Positions 9,766-43,152 of a stretch of 64,000 bases of DNA are shown piece by piece. The notes under the pieces were generated by a model. It worked only from the letters and a program-made list of their open reading frames with translations, made no database searches and was not told where the DNA came from. Origin of the DNA: Candidatus Hydrothermarchaeales archaeon (GTDB lineage: Archaea > Hydrothermarchaeota > Hydrothermarchaeia > Hydrothermarchaeales > JAZGAD01); contig JAZGAD010000047.1 of the NCBI GenBank assembly GCA_036444275.1, forward strand, positions 6,125 to 70,124, in the 5' to 3' direction. How positions within the stretch are numbered: the first letter of the stretch is position 1; every line of letters begins with the position of its first letter. The translations under genes were made by a program, and so were the position numbers.

Positions 9766-9766
9766 C

Positions 9767-12986: not shown

Positions 12987-12993
12987 TATCTCG

Positions 12994-17300: not shown

Positions 17301-17363
17301 TTTTCATATGTTAAAATGGAGAAGTAGGCTACTATCCTGGCCTAAAAGTAAGAGGTAAAGCGC

Positions 17364-18731: not shown

Positions 18732-19879
18732 TGAGGTATGATCTCGATGAACTTATCGCCTCCTTAGTTGATGCGGAAACAGTCGAACTTGAGAATGTCA
18801 CTATAGATACTGAAGAACTGGTCCTTGAAATCAGGAGGCTCGCAGGAGCCCGAAGACCTCTACATCCACCTATTCTGAAGCCCGAGAGACTGAAATTCCA
18901 AGTTCCCAAGGGAGAGTACAGGGGAGAAGTAGTAGAAGTGCAGTTCGGGGCTACGAAGGGCGATGGCGGGACTAGAGGAAAGGCAATTAAGATAGGTGGA
19001 CAGCGAAGCCTCTACTCCTTTGAGGATGGCATGCCAAATAGACCAGTTATCGCATATGATGTCTTCGATATGCCTATGCCAAGCTTTGCTAAATCGCTGA
19101 GAGAGGAGTGGCAGGATGCCTGGGATACCCCAGCGGAATGGGCAAAGAAAGCTGTGAAGCTGGGTGCAGATATGATAACCCTCCACTTAATATCAACAGA
19201 TCCAGGGATCAAAGATACCTCTCCTAAGGAAGCTGCTAAAACCGTGGAGGACGTGCTGCAGGCCGTAGATGTTCCCTTGGTTATCGGGGGCTCAGGTAAT
19301 CCAGAGAAGGACCCTGTGCTCTTCGAGAAGGTAGCTGAAGCTGCTGAGGGGGAGCTATGCCTACTCGCCTCTGCAAACCTTGACTTGGATCATAAGAGGA
19401 TAGTGGATGCTGCCAATAAGTACCGACACAACGTCCTATCCTGGACTTCTATGAATATAACAGACCAGCAGATGCTCAATAAACTCCTCCTCGACGAAGG
19501 GCTTCCGCAGGAGCGCATGGTCCAAGATCCCACTACAGGAGCGCTCGGCTATGGTTTGGAGTACACGTATTCCATCATTGAAAGGCTTAAGCTCAGCGCA
19601 CTTAAGGGAGAGAAGATATTGCAGAGCCCTATCTCCTGCGGTGTGACAAATGCATGGGCCGCTAGAGAAGCCTGGATGAATGAGCCTAGCTGGGGTGCAC
19701 GGGAGTACCGCGGTCCCCTGTGGGAGATAGTAACTGCAGTCACTGTGCTATTGGCAGGAGCTGACATGATGATGATGCTTCACCCTGGAGCCGTGAAGGC
19801 TGTGAAGGATATAATAGGGGCTATATCTGGAGAATTGAAAACCGAGCCCCTAGCTTACGAGGAATGGATCGCTCTATAG
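18731..19879 (+). CDS. cdhD: ACDS complex delta subunit (corrinoid Fe-S protein small subunit, CdhD)
   Basis: TIM-barrel-like 382-aa protein between cdhC and cdhE, with start-stop overlap to cdhC. Confidence 0.8.
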   Translation: MRYDLDELIASLVDAETVELENVTIDTEELVLEIRRLAGARRPLHPPILKPERLKFQVPKGEYRGEVVEVQFGATKGDGGTRGKAIKIGGQRSLYSFEDGMPNRPVIAYDVFDMPMPSFAKSLREEWQDAWDTPAEWAKKAVKLGADMITLHLISTDPGIKDTSPKEAAKTVEDVLQAVDVPLVIGGSGNPEKDPVLFEKVAEAAEGELCLLASANLDLDHKRIVDAANKYRHNVLSWTSMNITDQQMLNKLLLDEGLPQERMVQDPTTGALGYGLEYTYSIIERLKLSALKGEKILQSPISCGVTNAWAAREAWMNEPSWGAREYRGPLWEIVTAVTVLLAGADMMMMLHPGAVKAVKDIIGAISGELKTEPLAYEEWIAL

Positions 19880-19886
19880 GGGGCCT

Positions 19887-26994: not shown

Positions 26995-28446
26995 ATGACA
27001 GAAGCTAGTCTCTTAATAGTAGATGATGCGGAGGGTATACGGGAAACCCTCTCGGATATATTCAAGGAGAAGGGTTACGGTACCGATGTAGCTGAGGATG
27101 GCCGGGCAGCTATAGAGAAGGTAAAGAAGAGCTTCTTTAACGTCGTGCTCCTGGATATAAGGCTACCTGATATCTTGGGTGTAGAGGTATTGGAGAGTTT
27201 GAAGGAGATACGGCCAGATATAGAAGTGATAATGATTACAGCATATGCCTCTCTTGAGACCTCTATTGAGGCACTGAATAAGGGAGCATATGCCTATATC
27301 ATGAAGCCCCTTAACATGGGGGTGGTGATAGCTACCGTTAAGAAAGCCCTGGAGAAACAGCGCCTATCCGCAGAGAACATGTGGTTAACGGAATTCAACG
27401 AACGCATTATAAAGAATGCACCGATTGGGATCTTAACCACCGATGAAAAGGGCGATATAACGAGTGCGAATCCAGCTATTCTTGAGATTCTGGATAGCTT
27501 GGAGACGGAAAAATTGATTGGGCTTAGCGTATTAACCCTCCCAACCAGTAGGGCAATGGGCTTAGATAAGGAACTCAAGAAAGTATTGTCTGAGGGAAAG
27601 GAGATAGAGCTAGCGGGGAAGTATGTTTCTGAATCTGGAGCAGATGTTTTTCTCCATATCAGAAGCACCCCATTGAGAAACGAAAAAAGAGACATAACAG
27701 GGCTCCTAGCGATAATCGAGGACGTAACTGAGAGAAAGAAGCTTGACAGCATGAAGGATGCGTTTATCTCCAATGTCTCGCATGAGTTGAGGACTCCCCT
27801 TACATCTATCCTCACTTCTCTGGAGCTTCTTTCAAAGGAAACTGTAGAGAAGGAGAAGCGTAAGCTCTTGGAAATCTGTGATAGGAATGCTTTGAGGCTA
27901 AATCGATTGGTGGACAATCTATTGGAAGTCAGCCGGATTGAAGTAGAGACATTAGATGTTCGGACACTCGACGTTACTCGGGTAGTGGCAGAGATAATAT
28001 CAGAGCTGCAGGATTTTGCCGTTGTGAGTAAAGTTACGCTAAAATCCCTTATCGAGGATGAGTTCCTCGTAAGGGCCGATAAAAAATCACTACGGCTTGT
28101 CTTCCTGAATCTGATCAGCAATGCCATCAAGTTTAATAAAGAAGGGGGTAAGGTAACGATATCCGGCGAGCGGGAGGATTCATTTACCAGGTTCTGCGTA
28201 GAGGATACAGGCATAGGCATTCCAAGAGGAGATTTGAAAGAAATATTCAAGAGTTTCTACCAAATCGATGCAAGCATAAGGCGCAGGTACCCTGGAGCTG
28301 GTGTTGGTCTAACTATAACGAAAAACATAGTAGACGCCCATGGAGGCAAGATATGGGCTGAGAGCAAGCCCGGTAAAGGAAGCAAGTTCTGTTTCACTCT
28401 ACCCTCTGGAAGTAGAACCGGGAAGAAGATAAAAGAGGTAGGATAA
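26995..28446 (+). CDS. hybrid response-regulator receiver / PAS / histidine kinase (cytoplasmic)
   Basis: REC (LIVDDAEGIRETL...VLLDIRLPD), PAS, HisKA H-box SHELRTPLTSI and HATPase_c (G-box GVGLTI). Paralog of 35642..37279. Confidence 0.85.
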   Translation: MTEASLLIVDDAEGIRETLSDIFKEKGYGTDVAEDGRAAIEKVKKSFFNVVLLDIRLPDILGVEVLESLKEIRPDIEVIMITAYASLETSIEALNKGAYAYIMKPLNMGVVIATVKKALEKQRLSAENMWLTEFNERIIKNAPIGILTTDEKGDITSANPAILEILDSLETEKLIGLSVLTLPTSRAMGLDKELKKVLSEGKEIELAGKYVSESGADVFLHIRSTPLRNEKRDITGLLAIIEDVTERKKLDSMKDAFISNVSHELRTPLTSILTSLELLSKETVEKEKRKLLEICDRNALRLNRLVDNLLEVSRIEVETLDVRTLDVTRVVAEIISELQDFAVVSKVTLKSLIEDEFLVRADKKSLRLVFLNLISNAIKFNKEGGKVTISGEREDSFTRFCVEDTGIGIPRGDLKEIFKSFYQIDASIRRRYPGAGVGLTITKNIVDAHGGKIWAESKPGKGSKFCFTLPSGSRTGKKIKEVG

Positions 28447-28582
28447 GGATAGAAAAAGATTAGATAACCCGCAGAAGACGTTTAGTAATTTACGTCTCAC
28501 AATTCAGGGGGAATAGATGCAACATCTAAGCAATGACAAGAGAGCAATTTACGAACGTATAAGACGGAAAAACGGATGAGCT

Positions 28583-29257
28583 CTATACCTCTTTCCCCTC
28601 TGCCAATTCTTCCAGCTCCAACGGGTGCTCATGTTCCATTTGTTCTTTACTCAGTGTTCCAGTTATCCATTGCTTTGCCATTGGAAATATATCTGGATTC
28701 AAAATCGCCGCGTATAAATGTACGACTATTACAACAGAAAATGCCAAGATGGCCTCCCACCCATGTATCAACCAAGCATAATTGACGAACTGTAGCGGTA
28801 GGACTTCCAAGGTCATATCGAATGTGAACCACATCATAAGTCCTGTTACAACTACTATGAGAGAACCAACAGCTCCGGCCCAGTAATCGAACTTCTGCTC
28901 CCAGGTATACCTCCCCATTTTTGGCATTTCGTCGGTCATCCGTAAATTGTATTTGATGTGGTGTATAGCGTCATCGAAATCTTTCCTTTGCGGCATTATG
29001 TCCTTCTTTCCTCTGTCGATCATGGTGTAATATATCACATGTATAAGGCCTGTACCGATGAATACTACTGCAGCAATTTGATGATATAAACCTCTATTAG
29101 CCGGACCCCCAAGCAAGTCAACTATACTCTGTGCCCAGGATGTGTGGGCGTATTTCAATGGGAATCCCGTCAATGCCAAGATGAAAAACGATAAAGCCCA
29201 AAGGACGTGTTGTATCCTCTGAAAGACGGTAAATCTTAAGAATTCTTCTTCGGTCAT
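28583..29257 (-). CDS. membrane b-type cytochrome (cytochrome b561/Ni-hydrogenase-type dihaem cytochrome b family)
   Basis: Four TM helices with conserved His (QRIQHVLWALSF..., HQIAAVVFIGTGLIHVIYY). It overlaps the dihaem cytochrome c gene by 4 nt. Confidence 0.7.
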   Translation of the reverse strand: MTEEEFLRFTVFQRIQHVLWALSFFILALTGFPLKYAHTSWAQSIVDLLGGPANRGLYHQIAAVVFIGTGLIHVIYYTMIDRGKKDIMPQRKDFDDAIHHIKYNLRMTDEMPKMGRYTWEQKFDYWAGAVGSLIVVVTGLMMWFTFDMTLEVLPLQFVNYAWLIHGWEAILAFSVVIVVHLYAAILNPDIFPMAKQWITGTLSKEQMEHEHPLELEELAEGKEV

Positions 29258-29823
29258 TTCGCACGCCCCCCTTTCCTACTCTTACCTAACCTCCGACTAA
29301 AGTCCAATATCTCAAAGACTACGAAGAATCCTAGCACCGCGGAGATAAGTGTTTTATAGAAGAAGTTTATCAGCCCATTCACGGAGATTGGGCCTAGAGA
29401 GTATATATCGCTTCCATGCATCGATCCCTTGCCGGCATTGGCCAATTTAACATCATGACAATCTTCCCTCGCGCATATATCAGGTCTATTCTTAGGATTA
29501 GTGGGTGAATTTGGATCGCTCTGCGGAAGGAAATACATCCAGTCCACCATGCCGTGGCAATCCGTACAAGTTGGGACACCCTCTTTTCCGAGGGCAGCCG
29601 CTTTACCATGAGGGGACTCTTGGTACGTCTTGTTCGCATATTCAAAGGTATATGCAAGGTTATACCTCGTCTTAGCCTCAGAAGGTAGGGGGCTCTTCCA
29701 TCCCTCACTCCTGTATTTCTCCATGTCCCTCTTCTGGACTTCCTGAGCCTCCACGACATGGCTCAGGGATATGAAGCCTAAAAGGAAGAGTATTAGAACC
29801 CCGCCCTTTACCAACTCTCTCAT
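29254..29823 (-). CDS. membrane-anchored dihaem c-type cytochrome
   Basis: Signal peptide, one CXXCH (CTDCH) and one CX4CH (CAREDCH), and a C-terminal TM helix. Confidence 0.65.
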   Translation of the reverse strand: MRELVKGGVLILFLLGFISLSHVVEAQEVQKRDMEKYRSEGWKSPLPSEAKTRYNLAYTFEYANKTYQESPHGKAAALGKEGVPTCTDCHGMVDWMYFLPQSDPNSPTNPKNRPDICAREDCHDVKLANAGKGSMHGSDIYSLGPISVNGLINFFYKTLISAVLGFFVVFEILDFSRRLGKSRKGGRAK

Positions 29824-29850
29824 TGGTCCTGTTCTCCTTGTAAAATTTTA

Positions 29851-31350
29851 TTATTCATGCAGACGCGGAGGTTCGAGGTATTCTTGGAGTACCCAAGGCG
29901 AAACGTGGTTGTGGCATCCGTTGCATGAGTTGGGCTGCACATTCCAGAGCAGATCGTCCAGGGTTTTTCCTGCGGACATAGCTTCTCGGGCTTTTTTCTT
30001 GAGCAGCTCTTCCACTTGGGTCGTGTTAAGGCCTTCTACATCTTTAGCCTCGAGGCCGTAGAAACCCAGGACGGTGTTATCCTTCTTCGCGGCTTTGTCA
30101 ACTAGGAGTTTTATGCTGACCTCTGGTTTAATGACCTTGAACCTGTGGCTCCTAATATCTCCGGGGTTAATGTTCTTTGCAGTCGGGGGCATATGGCAGC
30201 CGACGCAGTTCCCGAAGTCGTGGATAGTATGGCTCAACCCAGCGAGGCCTGGAACCCTCCTCGGCTCACCGTGGCAGGCTTTGCACAGCGCAGTGCCTGC
30301 TAGCTTGGTCTCGAACCTGCCTTCACCTTTAGAGTGAACGGTGTGGCAGTCCCAACAGGTTATTCCTGCCTTCGCATGCTCACTTATCTGCCAATCTGGA
30401 TACTGTTGGTGGTGTGATTTGGAGTCTCCACTCGGCCAGAAGCGTTTTGGTGTATCTTTTTCGCGTGTAACAGGATCGTACAGGGGTATCAAGTTCATAC
30501 CGGGTTTGTAGCCAACGGGATATCCGTATTTCGCATCGAGGGTAGAATGACCTCGGGTGTGGCATGAGCCACAAACCATGACCCCTATATCTGTTTGTGG
30601 GATCTTTGCTGGGTTTACGATCGTATCCTTCTTGTAGGGGGTATCGGCCAATATGTGGTTGCTCCCCGGTCCGTGGCAAGCTTCACATCTGGCTCCGTTA
30701 TCTATCCAAGTTGAGGCATAGGTATCCGTGACTTCATCGTAGTTTATTTGAAAGCCTGTTGTATGGCAACCAGCGCATTTATACTGCCAGATCCTTCCCT
30801 TGCTGCTCCAATAATTTTTGGGATCATCATAATCATATTTCTCCAGCCCATGGTAGTCTTGCCACTTCTGTTCCCTAATATTCCATTGAACAGGGAGTAT
30901 ATGGAATTCTCCATTGTCGAACTTCGTGAGATATCTCTGCTTCCAGGCACTACCGATGGTATAGAGCACTTCGTAGATGTGCTCTTCTCCATCAGGACCG
31001 ATAGTAGTTATATAATATTTTCCGTCCTCTGTCGACATCGTGGTGTTCTTATCCTTAACGGTCAATTCGTTGTTCTTGACAAAATCGCCGAGGACGACGT
31101 TTTCGCCGATTTCCTGTATTTTATATGGATGCAGTGTCGTTTTCCAACCGGCGTAAGTTCTCTCGTGGCATTGCTTACATTGAACAGAACCGACGTAAGT
31201 AGCCCCCTCAGTGGTGGTTGGCTTTTCTTCTCCTATTCTAAATCGTTCTAAGAAGCTGAATCCAGGCGTTAAGGTTATAAATGCAATCGTTACTACTACA
31301 AACGCGGCTACAAGCAACCGCGAGATTCTTTTTCTCTCCTCTTGCTGCAT
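29851..31350 (-). CDS. octahaem c-type cytochrome (OTR/ONR/HAO-like class by size and haem spacing)
   Basis: Eight CXXCH motifs (CKQCH, CAGCH, CEACH, CGSCH, CWDCH, CKACH, CVGCH, CNGCH), an N-terminal signal/anchor, and 499 aa. Confidence 0.85.
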   Translation of the reverse strand: MQQEERKRISRLLVAAFVVVTIAFITLTPGFSFLERFRIGEEKPTTTEGATYVGSVQCKQCHERTYAGWKTTLHPYKIQEIGENVVLGDFVKNNELTVKDKNTTMSTEDGKYYITTIGPDGEEHIYEVLYTIGSAWKQRYLTKFDNGEFHILPVQWNIREQKWQDYHGLEKYDYDDPKNYWSSKGRIWQYKCAGCHTTGFQINYDEVTDTYASTWIDNGARCEACHGPGSNHILADTPYKKDTIVNPAKIPQTDIGVMVCGSCHTRGHSTLDAKYGYPVGYKPGMNLIPLYDPVTREKDTPKRFWPSGDSKSHHQQYPDWQISEHAKAGITCWDCHTVHSKGEGRFETKLAGTALCKACHGEPRRVPGLAGLSHTIHDFGNCVGCHMPPTAKNINPGDIRSHRFKVIKPEVSIKLLVDKAAKKDNTVLGFYGLEAKDVEGLNTTQVEELLKKKAREAMSAGKTLDDLLWNVQPNSCNGCHNHVSPWVLQEYLEPPRLHE

Positions 31351-31606
31351 GGATTCCGCTCCATTTCGAGATTTTAAAAAATCTATTTTAGTTTTTGCTC
31401 TTCCTCTTATATATATTTATATTAAGTCGGCATGGGTATTGCGCTGAATCGTCGTTTAGAATTATTTGGTCCCCCTCTCTTTAGGTTGGCAATTCATCTC
31501 TAAAAAAACAGAATAGGTCAAGATAAAAAAAAGAACCAGTAAAAGCAACCCTAGATTGGAAGGGTATGACAACTCGTATCGAATAAAAACTCAAAGAAGT
31601 AAGGCA

Positions 31607-32395
31607 TCAGTCCTTTTTCTTACTCTTATAGGCTTCAAAGACTTCCAAGAACGGTTTAAATAGGTCTATCGGCACCGGGAATATGACGTTTGAGCCCCGT
31701 TCTCCTGAGATCTCGACTAGGGATTGCAGATATCTCAATTGGAGTGCCATTGGATGGGGTCCAATAATCTCTGCTGCTTCCGCGAGTTTTTCTGCTGCTT
31801 GGAATTCTCCCAAGGCGTTGATCACCTTTGCCCTTCTCTCCCTCTCTGCCTCGGCTTGCCTCGCCATAGCCCTCTTCATGACTTCTGGAAGCTCGACATC
31901 CTTGACCTCAACACATGATACCTTCACTCCCCAGGGTTCTGTATGTGAATCTATAATCCTTTGAAGAGTATAATTGATCTTATCCCTCTCTGCGAGCAGT
32001 TCGTCCAGCTCATGTTGCCCAATAACACCCCGTAAGGTTGTCTGAGATATCAGCGTGGTAGATGCCACGTAGTCCGCCACCTCTACTGTGGATTTCACTG
32101 CATCCATTACGTTGAAGTATATAACGGCATCGACTTTGGTCGTCACATTGTCCTTGGTGATAACGTCTTGGGCCGAGACATTTTCTGTAACTACCCTCAG
32201 ATCTACCCTGAAGATCTTATCCACAAAGGGTATTATAAAGACTAAGCCCGGTCCTCTTGCATCTTGCAACCTCCCCATCCTGAAGAGAACCCCTCGCTCG
32301 TACTCTTTAAATACCCATATCGACATCTTGAGAAGTACCGAGACTACCAAAACTACGAGTATAGTAATTATAGTAATATACGTCCCTACAGGCAT
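31607..32395 (-). CDS. SPFH/band-7 (stomatin/prohibitin-like) membrane protein
   Basis: N-terminal TM plus a stomatin core (FKEYERGVLFRMGRL...VVTENVSAQDVITKDNVTTKVDAVIYF). Confidence 0.85.
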   Translation of the reverse strand: MPVGTYITIITILVVLVVSVLLKMSIWVFKEYERGVLFRMGRLQDARGPGLVFIIPFVDKIFRVDLRVVTENVSAQDVITKDNVTTKVDAVIYFNVMDAVKSTVEVADYVASTTLISQTTLRGVIGQHELDELLAERDKINYTLQRIIDSHTEPWGVKVSCVEVKDVELPEVMKRAMARQAEAERERRAKVINALGEFQAAEKLAEAAEIIGPHPMALQLRYLQSLVEISGERGSNVIFPVPIDLFKPFLEVFEAYKSKKKD

Positions 32396-32686
32396 TAATT
32401 TTCACCCTACAAAAAATTGTCAGTACTCCTATATATTATTTGTCCTACCTACTGCCTAGCTAGGGCAATTCGTTCTCTACCGTGCCTCAGATTGCAGAAA
32501 TCATTTTATAGATTGAACTTCAAATATTATACACATATATCCTACCAATGGAGAGATAAAAAGATTGGAGGAGAGATCAAGGATCACATAGCCTTTATCT
32601 GCAGGAAAAAATGTATGGTGTGGGGGGTCCAAAATAAGAGGAATTGGTATGGTAAACACCTTACCTCAAGTTCATAGGCGTAATAG

Positions 32687-35227
32687 ATGATTGTGAGGTC
32701 CAAAAGTCGATATGAAATACCGAAAATGGAGAAAATGGATTGGATGAACAAAGAACAACAAAAAGCGGCGCTCATTTTGGTAGTGGCATTTATTGGTAGT
32801 GCACTTACAGTAAACGGAACGCTTACAGCGGCGGAAGAAAAATATAGTACGATATTAAGCGCTGTGAGAACAAACGAAACGATAATCATAGATGGGCAGT
32901 TAAAGGAGTCTTCATGGAATGAGACAAAGACACTGATCATCCCAGTGGTGGATGGAAAGGTCGGGGATGTAGATGTGGAGATGAAGGCATTATACGATAC
33001 TGACTATATCTACATGTACATCGTATGGCCTGATCCGACCCAAAGCGATGCTTTATTCTGGGGATATAATGGCACTGCTTGGAACCCCCCAAATAAAAAT
33101 ACAGAGGATATTTTCACGATCTTCTGGAATATAAGGGACTCGGTTGAGGGATATGATATAGCTGGATGCGCCATTACTTGCCACGCAAATAGGATGCATA
33201 CCAATACCCCCGAAGAAAGACTCGATTACTGGAAATGGAAGGCAGAGAAAGGCAACCCCTCCGGCTATATGTGGGATGGATTCCTAGACGATATCGTGGT
33301 TATCGGGGAGAAGATATATCCCGGTTTTTCTAGGACCTTTATGATCGAGAAGGCATGGCATTCACACAAGCTAGATGAAACATCGGGTGACTATGTGGAG
33401 GAGAGAAAGAACGCGATTATCGATGAGAGAGGCAATTTCATTGGGCCGAGATATTATGAACCTGACGCAAGGGGCGAAGATGCGAAACACATCACGATGG
33501 AGGAGATCCTTAGGGACGAGGCCGTGGAATTTTTGAATTTAACAAAACTGAACGATGGAAGAGAGATCTCGATCGGCTTCAAAGTGCCTGTATACATCTC
33601 CGAAAAACCGACAGGAAGTGCTAGAGATATAAGCGCCAAAGGGGTTTATTATGACGGGAAGTGGCATCTGGAATTCAAGAGAAAATTGCAGACCGGGCAC
33701 GACGACGATGTCCTGTTCGATATCGCGAAGACCTATCGTTTCAGCATAGCTGTGAATGACGATTCTCACGGATCCGCCAACGAGGGTTATGGCCAAGGAC
33801 ACAGCATAAGCATGCTGGCGCGAACCCTAGAATTTGGCGGGATTGGTTCTGAAGAGATAACCCAACTGGCACTAATCCGCGATTATCTTCAGACCGCCAA
33901 GGCATATACCGGGCGCGGGGAATCGGGAATGGCGCTTTCAGAGGTCGATCATGCGTTGGCGATTTTCAATGCGATCAGGGGAGCAGTCGCCGACGAAGAC
34001 CCAGAACTCTACATGGACATTAGAAAGAGATTTGTAGAGGCCAAGAGGAATCCCTCGATCGATAACCTTGATGTCGTGCTTCAAGGCATCGAGGTTGCTA
34101 CATTAACTTTGCAGGGAAAGAGAGAGCCGCCAGAAGCGCCGTGGAATGTAAAGCTCCTAGTTCTCTGGGGGAGCGTACAACTTTACGTCTTTGTCTTTAT
34201 ATCGATATTTGTTCTCTATCCCCTCTACAAAACGATACAAACAACTAGAATACCGGAAATGCGCTATTTCGGCATCTTCCTATTTATAGTCATCCTCCCC
34301 CTATTTCTTGAAGGCGTTGGGAGGTTTGGGGTCCTTTTCAAGATCAGATTTTTGCAGAACTTCAGTTTCACAACAAATGAATACATAACCTTGCTCTGGG
34401 CGATAGGCATGTTCATAGCCTTGCTCATAGCCAAAGTTGGATTCACCGAAATAGATGAGACCATTCGCTCATTAAAATATTACAGCGCTGAAGTCGAAAC
34501 TAAGATGGAGGAGTTGAGAAAATCGCAAGAGCAACTGGTCAAGTCAGAGAGGATGGCTTCCATAGGGCAACTGGCAGCGAGTGTTGGCCACGAGTTGAGA
34601 AATCCTCTTGGAGTGATCAAGAACGTGAGCTACTATCTCAGCATGGCCCTAGCCGAGAAAGATGAAAAGGTGAAGAAGCACTTAAATATCCTAGAAAGGG
34701 AACTAGATACCTCCAACAAAATCATCACCGACTTATTGGACTTTTCACGGGGGGAGATAGAACCCACTTTTGGGGAAGCCAACATCAATGCGATCCTTAA
34801 GGATACATTGGCCAGGGCATCGGTACCTGACAATGTCAAAGTGGAAACTTATCTGGCCGATTTACCCTCAATGAGAGTAGATGGAGAGCAATTACAGCGG
34901 GTGTTCTTGAATATGATTTCAAACGCTGTTCATGCGATGCCCGATGGTGGTAAATTGATTATCAGAACCAAAAGTAAGGGCAACTCCGTAGAGATAGAGT
35001 TCGAGGACACCGGCAAAGGGATTTCGAAAGAGGATATAAAGAAGATCTTCGAACCGCTCTTTACCACTAAGGCAAAAGGGATTGGGTTGGGGTTAGCGAT
35101 CTGTAAACAAATCATCGATGGGCATGGGGGCACCATCGATGCGGTGAGCGCTGTAGACCAGGGGGCAACTTTTATCATCAAACTACCCGTGATGGAAGTA
35201 GAGGAAGATGAAGAAAAGGAAAACTAG
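32687..35227 (+). CDS. membrane sensor histidine kinase with an extracytoplasmic DOMON/EB_dh-like putative haem-binding domain
   Basis: Signal peptide, a DGxLxExxW-type DOMON/EB_dh start (IDGQLKESSWNE), the conserved GCAITCHANRMH (CX3CH), a helical linker, about 4 TM helices, HisKA (VGHELRNPL) and HATPase_c. The start may be MNKEQQ at 32744. Confidence 0.85.
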   Translation: MIVRSKSRYEIPKMEKMDWMNKEQQKAALILVVAFIGSALTVNGTLTAAEEKYSTILSAVRTNETIIIDGQLKESSWNETKTLIIPVVDGKVGDVDVEMKALYDTDYIYMYIVWPDPTQSDALFWGYNGTAWNPPNKNTEDIFTIFWNIRDSVEGYDIAGCAITCHANRMHTNTPEERLDYWKWKAEKGNPSGYMWDGFLDDIVVIGEKIYPGFSRTFMIEKAWHSHKLDETSGDYVEERKNAIIDERGNFIGPRYYEPDARGEDAKHITMEEILRDEAVEFLNLTKLNDGREISIGFKVPVYISEKPTGSARDISAKGVYYDGKWHLEFKRKLQTGHDDDVLFDIAKTYRFSIAVNDDSHGSANEGYGQGHSISMLARTLEFGGIGSEEITQLALIRDYLQTAKAYTGRGESGMALSEVDHALAIFNAIRGAVADEDPELYMDIRKRFVEAKRNPSIDNLDVVLQGIEVATLTLQGKREPPEAPWNVKLLVLWGSVQLYVFVFISIFVLYPLYKTIQTTRIPEMRYFGIFLFIVILPLFLEGVGRFGVLFKIRFLQNFSFTTNEYITLLWAIGMFIALLIAKVGFTEIDETIRSLKYYSAEVETKMEELRKSQEQLVKSERMASIGQLAASVGHELRNPLGVIKNVSYYLSMALAEKDEKVKKHLNILERELDTSNKIITDLLDFSRGEIEPTFGEANINAILKDTLARASVPDNVKVETYLADLPSMRVDGEQLQRVFLNMISNAVHAMPDGGKLIIRTKSKGNSVEIEFEDTGKGISKEDIKKIFEPLFTTKAKGIGLGLAICKQIIDGHGGTIDAVSAVDQGATFIIKLPVMEVEEDEEKEN

Positions 35228-35582
35228 CATTTTGGTAGTAGATGACGATATAGGCACGTGTGAAACCTTGGCCGATATTCTGACTGCGAAAGGATATAAT
35301 GTAACTACTGCAGAGAGCGGAATTGAAGCGGTTGAGAAACTCAAGGGGGAGCTCTTCAAAGTTATCCTCATGGATATAAAGATGATGGGAATAAACGGCA
35401 TAGAGACAATTAGGGAGATCAAGAAGATAGTATATCCTGAGGTGGCGATAATTATGATGACGGCCTACGTCGCCGAGGCCCTCGTAACAGAAGCTTTGAG
35501 GGAAGGGGCATATGCCGTTGTCTACAAACCTTTGGATATTGAGAGGATAATAAAGCTCATTGAAAGTGCAACAGTTAAGTAG
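35208..35582 (+). CDS. single-domain CheY-like response regulator
   Basis: Receiver with ILVVDDD...ILMDIKMMGINGIE...MMTAY. It overlaps the end of the upstream kinase. Confidence 0.85.
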   Translation: MKKRKTSILVVDDDIGTCETLADILTAKGYNVTTAESGIEAVEKLKGELFKVILMDIKMMGINGIETIREIKKIVYPEVAIIMMTAYVAEALVTEALREGAYAVVYKPLDIERIIKLIESATVK

Positions 35583-35641
35583 GATACAAATGGCCGTTAC
35601 ATTATGTAAATGTGAGATATTTAGGGAGAAGATGACTCGGA

Positions 35642-37279
35642 ATGTCCGAAGAAAGCAGCATCTTGATAATTGACGATGATAAAGGGATGCGCGAGACCCT
35701 TACAGACATACTCCAGGTGAAGGGCTACAAGACGGAGAGCGCAAAGGACGGAGAAGCGGCCTTGGATAAGCTGAAGGAGAAGTCCTTCAATGTAGCGCTC
35801 GTCGACATAAAGCTCCCGGATATTTCAGGCACAGAGGTATTGAAAAAACTCAAAGAGATTCAGCCGGATACGATAGTGATCATGATCACTGCTTTCGCTT
35901 CTCTCAATACTTCGATTAAGGCTTTGAAAGAGGGGGCATATGGCTATATCATGAAACCCTTGAATATGGATGAATTATTCGCTACCATCGGAGAAGGTCT
36001 CGAGAAACAGCGGTTGCAAAAAGAATTAAAAAAGTACTCTGAGCAACTGGAAGAGATGGTGAAAGCTAGGACTGAGGAATTACAGAATGCCTATGAAGAA
36101 CTCAAAGGCCTCGCCATCGAGAGAGCCCGTAATATCGAAGTAATACAAGAGCAATCGAGGGAACTCAAGGAAGCTAAGGACTTCTTGGATAACGTGATAG
36201 ACAGTAGCGCTGACGCGATAATCACTACTGGGTTGGACGGTACGATAACCTCTTTTAGCAGGGGTGCTGAGGAGCTCTATAAATACAAGGCTAAAGAGGT
36301 TATAGGCAAGCCGGCCCTCTCCCTTTACCCAAAGGAGCTTCGAGAAGAGAGGAGGGCTGGGTTGGATACGCTTCTTAAGGGCGAGACTATACGGAATATG
36401 AGAACCAGGATATACAATGCCGATGGAGAGCTTGTAGATATAAGTCTCTCTCTTTCCCGGCTCAGAGATATCTCCGGAAAGGCTATTGGTACTGTCGGAG
36501 TCTCAAAGGATATATCCAAGGAGATAGAGGGAGAAAAACGTCTGACGGAGGCATATGAGAGGCTTGTCGAATTGGATAAGATGAAGGACGAGTTCCTATC
36601 CAATATTTCACATGAGCTACGCACACCTATAACCTCGATTGTGACCTCCCTAGAGTTATTAGAGGAAGAAAGTCTACCGGGGGAGAGGGAGAAACTTCTG
36701 GAGGTATCTAAGAGGAATGTTTGGAGGCTGGATAATCTCGTCGGCAACCTACTGGAGTTCAGCCGCTTAGGAACGCAGAAGCTGCAAATGCAACCATTGA
36801 ACGCAAGTGTGCTGGTTCGTGAGCTTATAGCTGAAATGGAGAACTTTGCGGCAAGCAATGAAGTGGAGGTTAAGTCCTTTCTAAAGGAAGAAACCATGAT
36901 CATGGCTGATAAAAAGTTCGTAGGGCCTATATTCGGGAATCTCATTGGCAATGCCATAAAATTCAATAAGCGGGGGGGCAAGGTTAGGGTATCGGCGGAG
37001 GAAGAGAATTCGTGGATAAAGTTTTGCGTAGAAGATACCGGTGTAGGAATCCCCAAAGAAGGCTTGGACAAGGTATTCGATAGATTCTACCAGATCGATG
37101 CAAGCATCAGACGCAGGTACCCAGGCACAGGCTTAGGGCTGACCATAGCCAAGGAGATGGTGGAGCGCCAGGGAGGCATGATATGGGCTGAAAGCGAATT
37201 GGGAAAGGGTAGCAGGTTCTATTTCACTCTGCCCTCGGAACCTAGAACTAGAACCAGAAAAAAGATAAACGAGAAATGA
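35642..37279 (+). CDS. hybrid response-regulator receiver / coiled-coil / PAS / histidine kinase
   Basis: REC about 70% identical to the 26995 protein, PAS, SHELRTPITSI and HATPase_c. Confidence 0.85.
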   Translation: MSEESSILIIDDDKGMRETLTDILQVKGYKTESAKDGEAALDKLKEKSFNVALVDIKLPDISGTEVLKKLKEIQPDTIVIMITAFASLNTSIKALKEGAYGYIMKPLNMDELFATIGEGLEKQRLQKELKKYSEQLEEMVKARTEELQNAYEELKGLAIERARNIEVIQEQSRELKEAKDFLDNVIDSSADAIITTGLDGTITSFSRGAEELYKYKAKEVIGKPALSLYPKELREERRAGLDTLLKGETIRNMRTRIYNADGELVDISLSLSRLRDISGKAIGTVGVSKDISKEIEGEKRLTEAYERLVELDKMKDEFLSNISHELRTPITSIVTSLELLEEESLPGEREKLLEVSKRNVWRLDNLVGNLLEFSRLGTQKLQMQPLNASVLVRELIAEMENFAASNEVEVKSFLKEETMIMADKKFVGPIFGNLIGNAIKFNKRGGKVRVSAEEENSWIKFCVEDTGVGIPKEGLDKVFDRFYQIDASIRRRYPGTGLGLTIAKEMVERQGGMIWAESELGKGSRFYFTLPSEPRTRTRKKINEK

Positions 37280-37308
37280 CAACAAGGTATTGGAAGGGCT
37301 GTTAAGGA

Positions 37309-39759
37309 ATGCAAAGGAGAGCGAGGGACTTTTATCAATTAAGCTTGTTTAGTAGGGCTAAACGTAAGGATACGGCTATTTACATACCTAAAATTATACT
37401 TATAGTGATAATACTCGCTAGTTTTGCAGTTGTAGCAGGAGAGGTAGTGGAAAGACAGAGCACCATTTTGACAGCTGAGAGGGTCACTGAGCCGGTCGAG
37501 GTAGATGGGCTAGCTACTGAGAGTGCTTGGGATAGCGCGAGGCCGCTGGTGGTCACGGTCCAAGATGGTAGTATAGGGAGGATAGACGTATACCTCAAGG
37601 CATTATACGATTCTGACTACATCTACATCTATGCCACGTGGCCTGATCCAACTGAGAGTGTTAGTAAGCGTATGTGGGGCTTCAATGGCATAAACTGGTC
37701 TTTTTCTGACGACGAAGACAGATTTTCGGTCTTCTGGAATATAGACGATTCCGTCAAGGGCTTCAATGTCGGTGGTTGTGCGATGCTCTGTCACGGTGAT
37801 AGGATGCATGCTAATGCAGAGGGTGAGAAGGCTGACTCTTGGCACTGGAAGAGCAGTAGAACCAATCCAGTTGGTTATGCAGACGACAAATACGTAGACT
37901 CCCACGTTGTGCCTTACGAGGGTGGAGAGAAAATGGTAGGTCGCCATGGAGACCAAGCAGTCAGCGGGGGTTACATGCGTAACATCAATGACGAGGGCAC
38001 TAAGCCACTCTACTATGAGCCCTTGCCTGAGGATGAGTTGGATGCCTTGTTCCTATTGGAGGAGGAAGTCGAGGATGGTGAGGCAGTATTGTTGGATGAG
38101 GCGGAGCTTAAGTCGGGTATAGTTGTACCTGGTTATATCCTTAGTAAGCCAAGTGGCAGCAGAGGCGACATCGATTCTAAAGGTGTATGGCAAAACGAGA
38201 GGTGGGCTGTGGAGTTTCGTAGGAAGCTTGTGACTGGGCACGATGATGATGTCCAGTTTGATACTAGTAGGACGTATCGTTTTGGTATAGCTGTGATGGA
38301 CAATACGGGTGGCTTTGAGGGCTTCGGAAAGGGTCATAGCTTTGACTTGGGTGCCAGGACGCTTGAGTTCGGCGGCATTGGGAGCGAAGAGGTGACTCAG
38401 TTGGTCTTGATACGGGACTACCTAGTTACTGCCAAAGCACATGTTAGAGATGGAAAACCAGGATTGGCACTTTCAGAAGCCAACGATGGTCTCACATTGT
38501 ACAACGAGATCCGCGACGAGGTTGCAGACGTGGATCCAGAGCTCTACATAACTATAAAAAATGCATTCGTGGATTCTGTGAGGAATCCCACACTAAGCAA
38601 TATAGACATCCTGATAAGAAACATCGACGATGTTGTGCTAACTTTCCAGGGAAAGAGGCAACCAGCTGAACCGACGTGGAATCTAAAGCTCCTCATCGCA
38701 TGGGGGCGGATACAGCTCTATGTGTTCGTCGTGCTCTCAATACTTGTAACATACCCCATCTATAAGACAGTAAAGACGAGCGCGAGACCAGAATTACGCC
38801 ATCTGAGTCTCTTCTTGCTGATAGTAATGGCTCCGATATTCCTCGAGGGAGTGGGCCGCTTTGGTGTTCTTGCTAAGATTCATTTTCTGCAGAAGTTCAG
38901 TTTCACGACAAATGAATATATAACAATGATATGGGCGATAGGCATGTTCATAGCTTTGTATGTCGCTAAGATAGGATTCAACGAAGTAGATGATACCATC
39001 AAGTCGCTGGGTTACTACAGCACTGAACTCGAGACCAAGATGGAGGAGCTGAGGAAATCACAGGCAAAACTTTTAGGAGCAGAGAAATTGGCTTCTATAG
39101 GGCAGCTGACTGCAAGCATCGGGCATGAGCTGCGTAATCCGTTGGGCGTGATTAAGAACATAAGCTACTATCTCGACATGAAATTAGGCGATAGGGATGA
39201 AAAAATTAAGAAACATCTGCGGCTCTTGGATGAGGAGCTTGTCAGGTCAAATGAGATAATAAGCGATCTTTTGGACTTCTCTAGGGGTATAGAGCCGACT
39301 CTTCACGATGTTGACATCAATCCAGTCGTGGGGGAAGCCCTATTGAGAGCCACGATACCAGGTAACATCGAAGTGAGCACAAATTTTGAGGATGCATCAC
39401 CTAAGGTCTCCGTGGATAGCGAGCATATAGTGAGGGTATTTATGAATATAATCTCGAATGCAGTTCAGGCGATGCCAGAAGGTGGGAGTTTAAGGATAAG
39501 AACAGTGAAAAAGGATGATTTCATAGGAATAGAGATCACGGACACAGGCGTTGGAATCCCGAAAGAAGATGTAGGGAAAGTCTTTGAACCTTTATTTAGT
39601 ACGAAGGCGAAGGGGATAGGCCTGGGCCTAGCCATTAGTAGGCAGATCATAGAGAGACATGGCGGTAGCATTGAAGTAGAGAGCGTCCTAGATAGTGGGA
39701 CTACATTTATTGTAAAACTCCCGATAAAAAGGAGTCAGGGCGATGAAGGGGAAGACTAG
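37309..39759 (+). CDS. membrane sensor histidine kinase, paralog of 32687..35227, with the same DOMON/EB_dh-like domain and CX3CH motif
   Basis: VDGLATESAWDS..., GGCAMLCHGDRMH, the same TM/linker/HisKA/HATPase arrangement, and a colinear alignment by eye. Confidence 0.85.
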   Translation: MQRRARDFYQLSLFSRAKRKDTAIYIPKIILIVIILASFAVVAGEVVERQSTILTAERVTEPVEVDGLATESAWDSARPLVVTVQDGSIGRIDVYLKALYDSDYIYIYATWPDPTESVSKRMWGFNGINWSFSDDEDRFSVFWNIDDSVKGFNVGGCAMLCHGDRMHANAEGEKADSWHWKSSRTNPVGYADDKYVDSHVVPYEGGEKMVGRHGDQAVSGGYMRNINDEGTKPLYYEPLPEDELDALFLLEEEVEDGEAVLLDEAELKSGIVVPGYILSKPSGSRGDIDSKGVWQNERWAVEFRRKLVTGHDDDVQFDTSRTYRFGIAVMDNTGGFEGFGKGHSFDLGARTLEFGGIGSEEVTQLVLIRDYLVTAKAHVRDGKPGLALSEANDGLTLYNEIRDEVADVDPELYITIKNAFVDSVRNPTLSNIDILIRNIDDVVLTFQGKRQPAEPTWNLKLLIAWGRIQLYVFVVLSILVTYPIYKTVKTSARPELRHLSLFLLIVMAPIFLEGVGRFGVLAKIHFLQKFSFTTNEYITMIWAIGMFIALYVAKIGFNEVDDTIKSLGYYSTELETKMEELRKSQAKLLGAEKLASIGQLTASIGHELRNPLGVIKNISYYLDMKLGDRDEKIKKHLRLLDEELVRSNEIISDLLDFSRGIEPTLHDVDINPVVGEALLRATIPGNIEVSTNFEDASPKVSVDSEHIVRVFMNIISNAVQAMPEGGSLRIRTVKKDDFIGIEITDTGVGIPKEDVGKVFEPLFSTKAKGIGLGLAISRQIIERHGGSIEVESVLDSGTTFIVKLPIKRSQGDEGED

Positions 39760-40108
39760 AGTATTGGTAGTGGACGACGACGCTGGAACCTGCGAAACCT
39801 TATCAGACATCCTCTTGGAAACTACCTGTCAAGTTACTATGGCACGCGATGGATTTGAGGCCATAGAGAAGATGAAGGGGGAAAGCTTCGATGTTGTTCT
39901 TATGGATATAAAGATGCCAGGCATAAACGGGGTGGAGACTTACAAAGAGATGAAGAAGATAAATCCAGAGGCGAAAGTGGTTATGATGACAGCCTACGTT
40001 GGGGACGATCTAGTGGCAGAGGCCCTGAAGGAGGGGGCATCTACTGTGCTCTATAAGCCTTTGGATATAGGTAAGATGATAGACATCATAAAGGGAAAAT
40101 CCACATAA
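39743..40108 (+). CDS. single-domain CheY-like response regulator (paralog of 35208..35582)
   Basis: Receiver with VLVVDDDAGTCETL...VLMDIKMPGINGVE...MMTAY. Confidence 0.85.
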   Translation: MKGKTRVLVVDDDAGTCETLSDILLETTCQVTMARDGFEAIEKMKGESFDVVLMDIKMPGINGVETYKEMKKINPEAKVVMMTAYVGDDLVAEALKEGASTVLYKPLDIGKMIDIIKGKST

Positions 40109-40403
40109 AAAGGAAGGAGAGGGTGTATAATTGGCACCAAATGATGGTAAGGTTTATATACGCACCAGTAACTGCGATAAAACGGTGCCGAAATGAAGGT
40201 GCAAATAGACTGCAAGTTTGTGGAGATCGTGAAAAAAGAGGACTATGGCTATCTGAATTGCAATCTCCGGAGGTCTACGACCTTCAGCTGTCCCACCTGT
40301 TTGGAAGGTTTGATGGTCAGCAAGCGATAAACAAATTAAAGCTCCAGAAAAATAGAGCGATCCAAGCCGGAGTCCGTTAGACGAGAGAAGTCCTGTAGCA
40401 ATT

Positions 40404-42735: not shown

Positions 42736-42954
42736 ATGGCTCAGAGACCTCTCGACGTTCTGCATAGCTCCTTGGAATCCCCGGTCCTAGTGGGGTTGAA
42801 AGGGGGAAAAGAGTACAGAGGAATCCTCAAGGGATACGACATACACATGAACGTTGTAATCCAAGGTGCCGAGGAATTGAAGGACGGCTCTGCTGTAAGA
42901 AAGCTTGGCTTGGTAATAATTCGAGGAGACAGTGTAGTCTTCATCTCTCCGTGA
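42736..42954 (+). CDS. archaeal Sm-like (LSm) protein
   Basis: Sm1/Sm2 motifs ([26 protein letters not shown]...[12 protein letters not shown]) and the conserved Sm-L37e gene pair. Confidence 0.85.
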
Positions 42955-42963
42955 GGCGCGAGT

Positions 42964-43152
42964 ATGTCTAAGGGCACACCTTCTATGGGAAAACGGAATA
43001 AGCGGCTTCATATCCGCTGCCGGCGATGCGGCAGGAACTCTTTTCATGTGAAGCACGGCTATTGTGCAGCCTGCGGCTTCGGCAGGACTAAGAAGCTACG
43101 TAACTATTCTTGGCAGACTAAAACTAATAACAGAAAGAGAAGACTCCACTAG
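42964..43152 (+). CDS. rpl37e: ribosomal protein L37e
   Basis: [36 protein letters not shown] matches the L37e zinc ribbon. Confidence 0.9.

Follow-up and report, generated by a model that had tools for sequence, protein, structure and literature searches.

A respiratory cytochrome module and a two-component pair (the histidine kinase HK1 and its response regulator RR1), encoded back-to-back, appear to form the conserved core of a signalling and electron transfer region in the genome of an uncultured, hydrothermal Candidatus Hydrothermarchaeales archaeon. In the reading that is favoured here, to which a probability of roughly 0.6 can be assigned, HK1-RR1 would serve a quinol:octahaem cytochrome module as its dedicated sensor, reading redox state or a ligand through haem, while the neighbouring HK2-RR2 pair and the hybrid kinase hyb1 would represent a second, anciently diverged cassette. 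The coordinates and domain content of ten genes within the window (the whole 64,000-nucleotide stretch of DNA that was analysed) were checked against Pfam and are as given in an earlier note on this DNA (Table 1). Nothing points to a mis-join: the same gene order recurs in a second public record (L143), which agrees with the window at 99.99% identity across 21.4 kb.

Table 1. Genes and a putative promoter element of the cytochrome and signalling region (positions in the window)
Feature	Position	Strand	Description
hyb1	26995..28446	+	REC-PAS-HisKA-HATPase, 483 aa, cytoplasmic, TM-free (Pfam)
cyt b	28583..29257	-	membrane dihaem cytochrome b, FdnI/HydC type (Ni_hydr_CYTB), 224 aa
small c-type cytochrome subunit	29254..29823	-	189 aa; signal peptide, two haem motifs, C-terminal TM anchor
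octahaem c-type cytochrome	29851..31350	-	499 aa; 8 CXXCH; N-terminal membrane anchor
TATA-like box	31404..31419	.	conserved; 54-69 nt upstream of octahaem start codon
SPFH/Band-7 membrane protein	31607..32395	-	262 aa; Pfam PF01145, E 7e-36
HK1	32687..35227	+	N-terminal TM, extracytoplasmic EB_dh-like beta-sandwich, helical bundle, 3 TM, HisKA-HATPase
RR1	35208..35582	+	stand-alone receiver, 124 aa; Pfam PF00072 only; 20-nt overlap with HK1 stop
hyb2	35642..37279	+	REC-coiled coil-PAS-HisKA-HATPase, 545 aa, cytoplasmic (Pfam)
HK2	37309..39759	+	HK1-like architecture; CAMLCH at aa 157-162 (Pfam)
RR2	39743..40108	+	stand-alone receiver, 121 aa; Pfam PF00072 only; 17-nt overlap with HK2 stop

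The cyt b, small c-type, octahaem and SPFH genes lie back-to-back with HK1-RR1 in three further Hydrothermarchaeales loci (L001, L002 and L054), with amino acid identities of 82-91% (cyt b 85-91%, octahaem cytochrome 82-88%, HK1 86-89% and RR1 84-90%), which bears out the suggestion of the earlier note that a two-component pair is tied to the cytochromes. Both intergenic spacers of this block are conserved among the relatives; the HK1 ATG at 32687 is not, leaving a start codon that is uncertain between 32687 and 32735. At thresholds of 45% identity or more and E <= 1e-10, the flanks of L001 and L002 contained no match to any other window gene, and hyb1 is absent beside cyt b in both; in L054 only about 310 bp of contig remain beyond cyt b. 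HK2-RR2 is likewise absent from the cytochrome/HK1-RR1 loci of all three relatives. Synteny among relatives, which the earlier note had considered for the array as a whole, thus holds for the cytochromes and HK1-RR1 and fails for hyb1 and HK2-RR2; in the best model these last are add-ons specific to the window genome.

The components of the module can be assigned with varying precision. The cyt b protein matches PF01292 (E 1e-19) and, under the curated cut-off, a formate dehydrogenase gamma-like NCBIfam model; transmembrane segments are predicted, and it is the predicted quinol-oxidising anchor. The small c-type subunit, previously called ‘dihaem’, does possess two haem motifs, only one of which is CXXCH (CTDCH), the other being CX4CH (CAREDCH); it matched no Pfam family, and its homologs in the bacterial operons are trihaem subunits of 227-235 aa. 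The octahaem cytochrome, the predicted terminal reductase or electron outlet, is a member of the NrfA/OcwA superfamily, with OcwA (6i5b_A, E 3e-21) as its best solved relative and NrfA proteins next (PMC6703420). Beyond the archaeal relatives it has homologs at 35-53% identity in about 125 further loci, of which the titled ones are bacterial, mostly Desulfobacterota. Across 132 octahaem loci, cyt b homologs co-occur in 97 and a match to the small c-type subunit is found in 108. The spacer upstream of the octahaem gene (82% mean column identity across four genomes) contains the TATA-like box, a putative promoter that occurs only once in the window. The SPFH gene, which had been counted in the cytochrome operon, is probably a separate transcription unit, because it has its own conserved TATA-like/AT-rich box (at 32426-32442) and lies 256 nt from the octahaem gene; it is present in only three of the 132 loci, all from Hydrothermarchaeales. 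Ccm genes were not seen in the annotated part of the window, and were found only in the locus of a relative.

The strongest competing view, possible and yet clearly the less probable one, is that the neighbourhood is a coincidence, in which members of a large, mobile and genome-scattered archaeal kinase family happen to adjoin cytochromes to no functional effect. The four genomes that bear the linkage are close kin, at 82-91% amino acid identity, and the adjacency could partly reflect recent common ancestry; moreover, hyb1 and HK2-RR2 adjoin cytochromes in the window genome only. Many family members are orphans amid housekeeping genes (L055, L057, L058 and L062), so the sensor family as a whole is not tied to cytochromes. 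However, the HK1-RR1/cytochrome junction and its non-coding spacers survive, while what flanks them in L001 and L002 corresponds to none of the window genes, and other bearers of the sensor module adjoin CcmC/CcmE (L061) or a Rieske/cyt b/multihaem cluster (L060), with a further one beside Dfx/rubrerythrin/KatG genes (L059). In bacteria, EB_dh proteins and two-component systems are independently associated with the homologous operon: a stand-alone periplasmic CX3CH EB_dh protein is encoded immediately upstream of an octahaem-trihaem-cyt b operon at L004 and L073 (among about 128 non-archaeal octahaem loci, these two alone have an EB_dh gene), and the closest bacterial octahaem gene (L003, 53%) has its own HAMP-HK and OmpR response regulator upstream and a NapC/NirT partner downstream.

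The sensor portions of HK1 and HK2 both match the EB_dh domain (Pfam E 1e-26 and 8e-32), which the predicted topology of HK1, with four transmembrane segments, places outside the membrane. An AF2 model of the HK1 sensor (pLDDT 92.5) retrieved NxrC (7b04_C, E 2e-10) and EBDH-gamma (2ivf_C, E 3e-8) in Foldseek, and a profile match to NxrC was also obtained (E 1e-13). All homologs whose sequence extends over the site keep a CX3CH motif (CAITCH, aa 161-166 in HK1), as do 124 of 134 further cluster representatives, in which tandemly repeated domains have it in every copy; C112, C116 and H117 (counting from HK1 aa 50) do not vary, and a second histidine (‘GHS’) is at least 90% conserved. Because of this invariance, covalent attachment of haem at CX3CH is predicted, and the near-invariant second histidine would probably be the distal ligand. 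NxrC offers no aligned counterpart to the CX3CH segment; by approximate positional counting, rather than residue-level structural superposition, the CX3CH histidine and the second one sit roughly where the NxrC haem ligands, Met155 and Lys305 (PMC8387239), lie. The HK1 sensor has the appearance of a covalent-haem domain not described before. Complete sensor modules are scarce, with about 20 clusters in a set of 1.84 billion representatives, and fusions to CXXCH multihaem domains or to cytochrome b561 occur in some family members.

It is unlikely, in light of these data, that the EB_dh domain is instead a CBM9-like binder of carbohydrate or another envelope ligand, or a cysteine-pair thiol/disulfide or metal switch, reporting envelope status. 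Carbohydrate-binding modules of the CBM9 type were among the Foldseek hits (E 1e-5 to 1e-4), the SPFH gene next door is suggestive of a role in membrane organisation, and haem in the domain is a motif-based prediction; but a strict C-x3-C-H with an invariant histidine directly after the second cysteine, maintained across hundreds of diverged homologs, is a haem c attachment signature, the closest structural relatives bind haem, and both the fusions to cytochrome domains and the Ccm genes at L061 point the same way.

The signalling genes are paralogs, as had been noted, at levels of similarity that, judged from the alignments, are far beyond chance. Hyb1 and hyb2 are 44% identical over their full lengths (BLASTP, E 3e-136), HK1 and HK2 54% identical over 795 aa, and RR1 and RR2 60% identical. 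The ‘about 70%’ identity that had been estimated for the hybrids is accurate for DNA (REC segment 67% over 352 nt, C-terminal kinase segment 71% over 370 nt), and too high for protein (REC 62%, PAS 29%, HisKA 60%, HATPase 63%). The same kind of comparison aligned HK1-RR1 (32687-35582) with HK2-RR2 (37309-40108) in a single DNA alignment (65% over 1885 nt) that spans the HK/RR junction. The family to which HK1 and HK2 belong numbers over 80 proteins, and the two fall into separate clades of it; the duplication is therefore old. HK2 and RR2 are closer to their L053 counterparts (~70% and 73-76%) than to HK1 and RR1; HK2 is identical to P0001, and its best relative, P0002 (71% over the sensor), is encoded at L053, a locus where no cytochromes were seen. 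RR1 clusters with the L054 and L002 regulators and RR2 with that of L053, each with a bootstrap of 100. No ortholog of hyb1 was found among 5.8 billion proteins, its best non-self matches being hyb2 and the hybrid of one relative (43-44%).

The two signalling sets are thus best taken as old paralogs set side by side, and not as a recent duplication split by an insertion. The recurring cassette, found at five loci (the window, L002, L054, L053 and L061) and in three sensor clades, runs HK, REC-only RR, then REC-(PAS)-(kinase), rather than hybrid-HK-RR; HK1-RR1-hyb2 is therefore a full cassette, HK2-RR2 lacks a third gene, and hyb1 is solitary, standing alone and convergent with cyt b. Hyb2 lies 59 and 29 nt from its neighbours, and its REC is closest to that of the gene after RR1 in L054 (77%); for the hyb1 REC the nearest relative is encoded third in the HK2-type cassette of L053 (67%, with a bootstrap of only 43). 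That a (hybrid-HK-RR) unit was duplicated in tandem, with the cytochrome/SPFH block inserted later between hyb1 and HK1, is a parsing that the + strand gene order and the pairwise paralogy of all three gene types allow, but it is highly improbable given that the block abuts HK1 in every relative, with no hybrid on its far side in L001 or L002, that the recurrent order and the L053 affinities just described run against it, and that the GC of 26-40 kb (0.44-0.47) matches the remainder of the window and DNA self-comparison of the region found no flanking repeats. The multi-step phosphorelay that had also been put forward is not supported in its classical form, since neither the genes nor the small ORFs of the region encode an HPt domain; the hybrid RECs are N-terminal, as input, and REC-(PAS)n-kinase proteins of this kind are the usual archaeal architecture (PMC5847659).

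Under the favoured reading of HK1-RR1 as a dedicated sensor, the Met/Lys-ligated haem b of its NxrC/EBDH-gamma relatives would be replaced by a covalent haem at CX3CH, whose redox or ligand state may be set by the extracytoplasmic electron pool or by the substrate that the octahaem complex handles. The signal would pass from the sensor through the helical bundle and the three transmembrane helices to the kinase, which would phosphorylate RR1 and probably also the N-terminal REC of hyb2, where a PAS-gated kinase may add cytoplasmic input. The signalling genes contain no DNA-binding or other output domain, so that the link from HK1-RR1 to cytochrome gene expression is drawn from adjacency; output may follow the usual archaeal route of protein-protein interaction, probably directed at the expression or activity of the adjacent cytochromes, alongside which the SPFH scaffold gene lies. 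The second cassette would have been juxtaposed in the window genome only, its third gene possibly displaced beyond the cytochromes to become hyb1.

Haem is the cofactor of known sensor kinases and receptors, as haem b in the PAS/GAF sensor domains of FixL and DosS/DosT, and as c-type haem in the periplasmic PAS sensors of the chemoreceptors GSU0582/GSU0935 of Geobacter, an organism rich in multihaem cytochromes. Like these two-component and chemotaxis proteins, HK1 would carry a haem cofactor in its input domain, and the haem would, as in GSU0582/GSU0935, be covalently bound and on the outer side of the membrane. It differs in using an EB_dh/DOMON-like beta-sandwich and helical bundle rather than PAS or GAF, and, compared with the Geobacter c-haem sensors, in having CX3CH rather than CXXCH, an archaeal host, and a description drawn from sequence. 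Among the systems closest to the cytochromes are the Cbc complexes of Geobacter, quinol oxidoreductases composed of cytochrome b and multihaem cytochrome c. The module shares with these, and with the menaquinone:cytochrome c oxidoreductase clusters of Methanoperedenaceae (PMC7327174), a b-type membrane cytochrome gene beside multihaem c-type genes in an anaerobe; the proposed role of such clusters is to export electrons from the quinol pool, and lateral acquisition is the presumed origin of the archaeal ones. Where the Methanoperedenaceae clusters encode 6-haem proteins, the module has an NrfA/OcwA-family octahaem protein and a small two-haem anchor. That octahaem protein has the NrfA-like haem packing motifs of Thermincola potens OcwA (PDB 6I5B; PMC6703420), but it has eight haems where those systems have nine or five, it lacks a CXXCK motif, and its activity is a prediction; at L003 a NapC/NirT quinol dehydrogenase gene lies downstream of the octahaem gene, an arrangement like that of NrfHA, whereas the membrane partner here is cyt b with the small c-type subunit, not NrfH.

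The HK1 sensor has the same fold and a WHWK-type motif in common with EBDH gamma/NxrC (PF09459) and the archaeal CbsA/FoxC, all of them extracytoplasmic redox proteins (FoxC resembles EBDH-gamma; PMC10654088). EBDH gamma and NxrC are electron-transfer subunits of the type II DMSO reductase family with non-covalent haem b, whereas the HK1 sensor possesses the invariant CX3CH and second conserved histidine and is fused to transmembrane helices and a kinase. The stand-alone RECs of RR1 and RR2, and the REC-PAS-kinase hybrids without DNA-binding output, are typical archaeal classes (Galperin et al. 2018, PMC5847659). The text of that census covered by a term search has no mention of an EB_dh input domain, and it reports that cytosolic sensors make up a much higher fraction among archaeal kinases; HK1 and HK2 differ from that tendency in having a large extracytoplasmic sensor.

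The cytochrome genes of this region are a conserved partner of one of its two membrane sensor kinases, HK1, and of the stand-alone receiver RR1. An ORF listing combined with Pfam and NCBIfam scans returned ten genes, at the coordinates proposed in an earlier note that had been made by reading the sequence; these are collected in the table.

Genes of the region, with positions in the window and the features that identify them
Gene	Position	Strand	Features
hyb1	26995-28446	+	REC-PAS-HisKA-HATPase
Cytochrome b, FdnI/HydC type	28583-29257	-	PF01292
c-type subunit, 189 aa	29254-29823	-	CTDCH and CAREDCH motifs
Octahaem cytochrome	29851-31350	-	8 CXXCH
SPFH protein	31607-32395	-	Pfam/NCBIfam scan
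HK1	32687-35227	+	EB_dh sensor and HisKA-HATPase
RR1	35208-35582	+	REC only
hyb2	35642-37279	+	REC-PAS-kinase hybrid
HK2	37309-39759	+	EB_dh sensor and HisKA-HATPase
RR2	39743-40108	+	REC only

Relatives of the locus were found by a scan with the octahaem protein, using one genome per species (L001 and L002), and by contig look-up (L054). In all three of these Hydrothermarchaeales loci the cytochrome b, small c-type, octahaem and SPFH genes stand back-to-back with HK1-RR1, at 82-91% protein identity. Both non-coding spacers are also conserved (the one upstream of the octahaem gene with a mean column identity of 82%), and TATA-like boxes lie at 31404-31419 and 32426-32442 of the window. At a threshold of at least 45% identity and E <= 1e-10, the window's other genes have zero matches in L001 or L002, so that the flanks are not syntenic; hyb1 and HK2-RR2 are absent from the L001, L002 and L054 loci. 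The earlier note had offered two accounts of this arrangement, and the comparison with relatives that it proposed upholds them only in part. A regulon built around the cytochromes is favored for HK1-RR1 by the conserved linkage, but not for HK2-RR2 and hyb1, which are missing at the relatives' loci. The other account, an insertion of the cytochrome operon between the first hybrid and its kinase, fails because the relatives' block directly abuts HK1-RR1 where hyb1 is absent; an empty site was not found in these relatives, their flanks being non-syntenic. A further contig (L058) has PyrBI and mevalonate genes in common with the window, and the two diverge before the region is reached.

Between the SPFH and octahaem genes lies a gap of 256 nt, and SPFH has a conserved box of its own; it is therefore probably transcribed separately. 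Of 132 loci with octahaem homologs, only 3, all of them from these archaea, include an SPFH gene. The spacer between SPFH and HK1 carries an insertion of approximately 330 bp in L054 (4160-4500) and L001 (3185-3540), corresponding to about 32449-32471 of the window. The two copies are 83% identical and single-copy in the sequences retrieved, and the insertion is absent from the window and L002. An Rfam scan of the L054 copy gave zero matches; the stretch may encode a small RNA, serve a regulatory purpose or be what is left of a mobile element.

All four kinases (HK1, HK2, hyb1 and hyb2) score above the gathering thresholds for the histidine kinase families PF00512 and PF02518, and H-box motifs (SHELRNPL or SHELRTPL) are seen in their translations. 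The receivers of RR1, RR2 and the two hybrids match PF00072 with E-values between 1e-26 and 3e-30, and all four retain the DD...D...KP residues. As the earlier note had judged by eye (about 70%), the hybrids are paralogs: their REC and kinase ends are 67-71% identical in DNA, and their proteins are 44% identical overall (REC 62%, PAS 29%, HisKA 60%, HATPase 63%). The same holds for the sensor kinase and receiver pairs (HK1/HK2 54% and RR1/RR2 60% identical), which align in DNA as a single continuous stretch of 1.9 kb spanning the overlapping stop/start junction, indicating that each pair was inherited as one unit.

The age of this paralogy is a separate matter. With the HK2 sensor region as query, approximately 88 proteins with the complete module were retrieved, and a neighbor-joining tree of 85 sensor modules places HK1 (with the homologs P0051, P0053 and P0084) and HK2 (with P0002) in well-separated clades. 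A bootstrapped tree of REC domains, which resolves stand-alone receivers and hybrid RECs as two classes, likewise parts the paralogs, grouping RR1 with the receivers of L054 and L002 and RR2 with that of L053 (bootstrap 100 in each case). A recent tandem duplication was rejected on the strength of both trees, and the doubling of a hybrid-HK-RR unit that the earlier note had envisaged falls with it; the juxtaposed sets are instead old paralogs on these trees. The order within that unit also requires revision. Downstream of RR1 the relatives encode REC-PAS-kinase hybrids (498 aa in L002, 729 aa and 627 aa in L054); in L053 a receiver and a REC-kinase come after P0002, the protein to which HK2 is most closely related (71% over the sensor), and in L061 a receiver and a REC-PAS protein come after P0062, a member of a third clade. 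This shared order defines a cassette of HK, REC-only RR and REC-(PAS)-(kinase), in which the window's HK1-RR1-hyb2 is complete, HK2-RR2 follows 29 nt after hyb2 without a third gene, and hyb1 stands alone beyond the cytochromes. In the REC tree, the receiver of hyb2 is nearest to the L054 gene that follows RR1 (77%); that of hyb1 is nearest to the gene in third position of L053's HK2-type cassette (67%), a weak placement with a bootstrap of 43. No ortholog of hyb1 was found among 5.8 billion proteins, its best non-self matches being 43-44% identical. A foreign island was rejected, base composition being uniform across 26-40 kb with no flanking repeats, and so was a mis-assembly, as a second public record (L143), possibly from the same sample, repeats 21.4 kb in the same order at 99.99% identity. 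The paralogous array is, in itself, ordinary genome tinkering.

Several further observations concern the surroundings. Assembly GCA_044240385.1 holds both the window's organism (L143, a 108.8-kb contig) and the sister lineage represented by L054, whose cytochrome/HK1 module is 85-88% identical in protein and whose downstream hybrids differ; two related populations with differently wired cassettes thus coexist in one sample. Fibrillarin, Nop5 and TFB are encoded nearby, as are the CODH/ACS subunits CdhC (17364-18731) and CdhD (two family genes, 18731-21311), which marks the host as an archaeon; database matches assign it to a Candidatus Hydrothermarchaeales MAG. Within the stretches 3209-5891 and 12588-21311 the window holds, besides these CODH/ACS genes, an archaeal HMG-CoA synthase/thiolase/DUF35 trio (12588-15191) and PyrBI. 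Part of this PyrBI, HMG-CoA synthase and CODH/ACS gene order is common to L058, a 423-kb contig of a relative, against which a block of approximately 6.5 kb (6053-12049) is interposed in the window, with HEAT-repeat and TPR-repeat genes and four ORFs without a Pfam match. The only Rfam matches in the window are two tRNAs.

The multi-step phosphorelay suggested by the earlier note is not borne out: family scans found no HPt domain in the ten genes or in the small ORFs at 40123-40380, 32417-32677 and 42787-43056, and the hybrids, which lack TM segments, carry their REC domains at the N-terminus rather than the C-terminus. RR1 and RR2 are bare receivers, and no DNA-binding output domain is present in the region's genes and small ORFs. 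Both the REC-only and the REC-PAS-kinase design are typical of archaea, and such proteins are proposed to act through protein-protein interaction (PMC5847659). A kinase cascade, running from the HK to the REC of the hybrid and on to the hybrid's own kinase, would be plausible.

Among solved structures, the octahaem protein is closest to OcwA (6I5B, 6i5b_A; E 3e-21; PMC6703420), followed by NrfA proteins (E 1.5e-5 to 1e-4) and cytochrome c554 (E 7e-4), which places it in the NrfA/octahaem superfamily (OcwA, NrfA, MccA, HAO, c554); its eight haem motifs are all CXXCH, with no CXXCK. The cytochrome b, of the FdnI/HydC type, scores 71.3 bits against PF01292 (cut-off 30.1), with TM segments and His residues visible; its identity as a formate dehydrogenase gamma subunit was rejected, the NCBIfam equivalog cut-offs not being reached. 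Octahaem homologs of approximately 35-53% identity occur in about 125 further loci, where every record that carries an organism title is bacterial and most are Desulfobacterota; across the 132 octahaem loci a small multihaem subunit is present in 108 and a cytochrome b in 97. The bacterial homolog nearest in sequence (L003, 53%) is instead partnered by a NapC/NirT protein and has a HAMP-HK/OmpR pair of its own, and a metagenome scan with the octahaem protein returned homologs of 25-46% identity and zero close archaeal relatives. This pattern fits a quinol-fed periplasmic reductase or electron outlet, and the distribution makes it probable that the archaeal lineage gained the module from bacteria.

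HK1 and HK2 each comprise an N-terminal TM helix, approximately 440 extracytoplasmic residues and three further TM helices, followed by the kinase. (The ATG of HK1 at 32687 is not kept in relatives; alternatives are GTG 32693 and in-frame ATGs at 32726, 32735 and 32744, and the NCBI product begins at ATG 32735 (MDWMNK...). The deposited HK2 product begins 32 residues after the ORF start at 37309.) The extracytoplasmic regions match EB_dh (PF09459) with 94.7 and 111.6 bits (cut-off 33.3), and an AlphaFold model based on 97 sequences (pLDDT 92.5) consists of a beta-sandwich followed by a helical bundle. Foldseek searches with this model recovered the beta-sandwich proteins NxrC (7B04_C, E 2e-10) and EBDH-gamma (2IVF_C, E 3e-8), with CBM9 modules more weakly, and the family profile matches NxrC at E 1e-13.

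Within the exported segment of each sensor lies a C-x3-C-H motif (CAITCH in HK1, CAMLCH in HK2), of the CXnCH kind that marks c-type cytochromes. The motif is present in all homologs covering the site and in 124 of 134 further cluster representatives, including every unit of tandem-repeat proteins. Its two Cys and its His (His166 in HK1) do not vary, and conservation reaches at least 90% for another His, at about aa 372, which belongs to a 'GHS' motif. Ccm systems are able to mature CX3CH sites. CcmC and CcmE were seen only in the related locus L061, and an octahaem protein with eight CXXCH motifs implies that c-type cytochromes are matured in this organism. We infer that the EB_dh sensor carries a covalent haem, probably with His/His ligation. 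The haem b of NxrC is ligated by Met155 and Lys305 (PMC8387239); the CX3CH and GHS histidines fall near these positions by positional counting only, and nothing in the NxrC alignment corresponds to the CX3CH segment. On the archaeal contig L061 (339-7505), a cassette of EB_dh kinase, RR and REC/PAS protein runs divergently from CcmC, a 41-aa ORF, CcmE, a REC protein and Nre, so that a sensor paralog adjoins cytochrome c maturation genes.

The sensor module is rarely found whole: of 1.84 billion cluster representatives, 795 match at E <= 1e-3 and about 20 align over the full length. Its outputs are varied (HK, PAS-HK, GAF-HK, HisKA_3, GGDEF, HD-GYP), marking it as a portable input module. In some distant members the fusion partner is a CXXCH multihaem domain or cytochrome b561, and a member from the Desulfobacterales follows a Rieske/cytochrome b/multihaem cluster and precedes a NarL-type response regulator. 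In Desulfuromonas (L059, 2193-12892), an EB_dh-GGDEF gene, followed by one for a REC-PAS-GGDEF-EAL protein, faces desulfoferrodoxin (Dfx), two rubrerythrins and KatG, a context in which the protein may link the sensing of oxidants or redox state to c-di-GMP. Together, the fusions and the CcmC/CcmE, Rieske/cytochrome b and Dfx/rubrerythrin/KatG neighbors support a redox role. Other members are orphans in housekeeping neighborhoods, which makes the cytochrome link specific to the HK1 clade. At L055 2011-6077 and L056 343-4409, two tandem genes encode proteins of 648 and 623 aa with the EB_dh sensor and TM region and no kinase or other output domain; these may be sensors that have been truncated, or else independent membrane haem proteins.

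In two bacterial loci (L004 50-6813, L073 522-4298), a stand-alone periplasmic CX3CH EB_dh protein is encoded upstream of an octahaem-trihaem-cytochrome b operon. This hints, independently, at a joint function of the EB_dh haem domain and the octahaem complex, and it prompts the idea that a redox partner may have given rise to the archaeal sensor. (In L004, the EB_dh gene is separated from the operon by genes for a membrane-bound sigma-54 activator and a REC-only protein.) A bolder reading, at a probability of roughly 0.3, is that the EB_dh-CX3CH module constitutes a new class of extracytoplasmic covalent-haem sensor domain, derived from a soluble redox partner of the octahaem/cytochrome b complex, and that the kinase exchanges electrons directly with the respiratory chain that it controls. 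If so, HK1 would respond to how reduced an archaeal module for extracellular electron transfer is, or to the flux through it, instead of to a diffusible ligand. Mechanistic steps past domain content, fold, motif conservation and linkage are inference.

The signals sensed by archaeal histidine kinases, and the workings of their outputs, are little known. Here conserved linkage joins one respiratory cytochrome module of an uncultured hydrothermal lineage to a rare, well-defined extracytoplasmic input module that is predicted to hold a covalent haem. The sensor domain of approximately 440 aa and its small soluble partners offer an expressible target for the study of archaeal extracellular redox monitoring, and could serve to define a CX3CH subfamily of EB_dh/DOMON domains, at present annotated just as 'ethylbenzene dehydrogenase-related'. 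According to a published census (PMC5847659), cytosolic sensors make up a much larger share in archaea, and there are response regulators that lack output domains. The searchable literature contained nothing relevant on EB_dh or DOMON sensor kinases or on CX3CH DOMON cytochromes, and no description of a predicted covalent-haem EB_dh sensor beside archaeal respiratory cytochromes, which would represent a new variant of haem sensing. The cytochromes themselves have a parallel, in that the clusters of cytochrome b and multihaem proteins in Methanoperedenaceae (PMC7327174) follow a logic comparable to that of the octahaem module.
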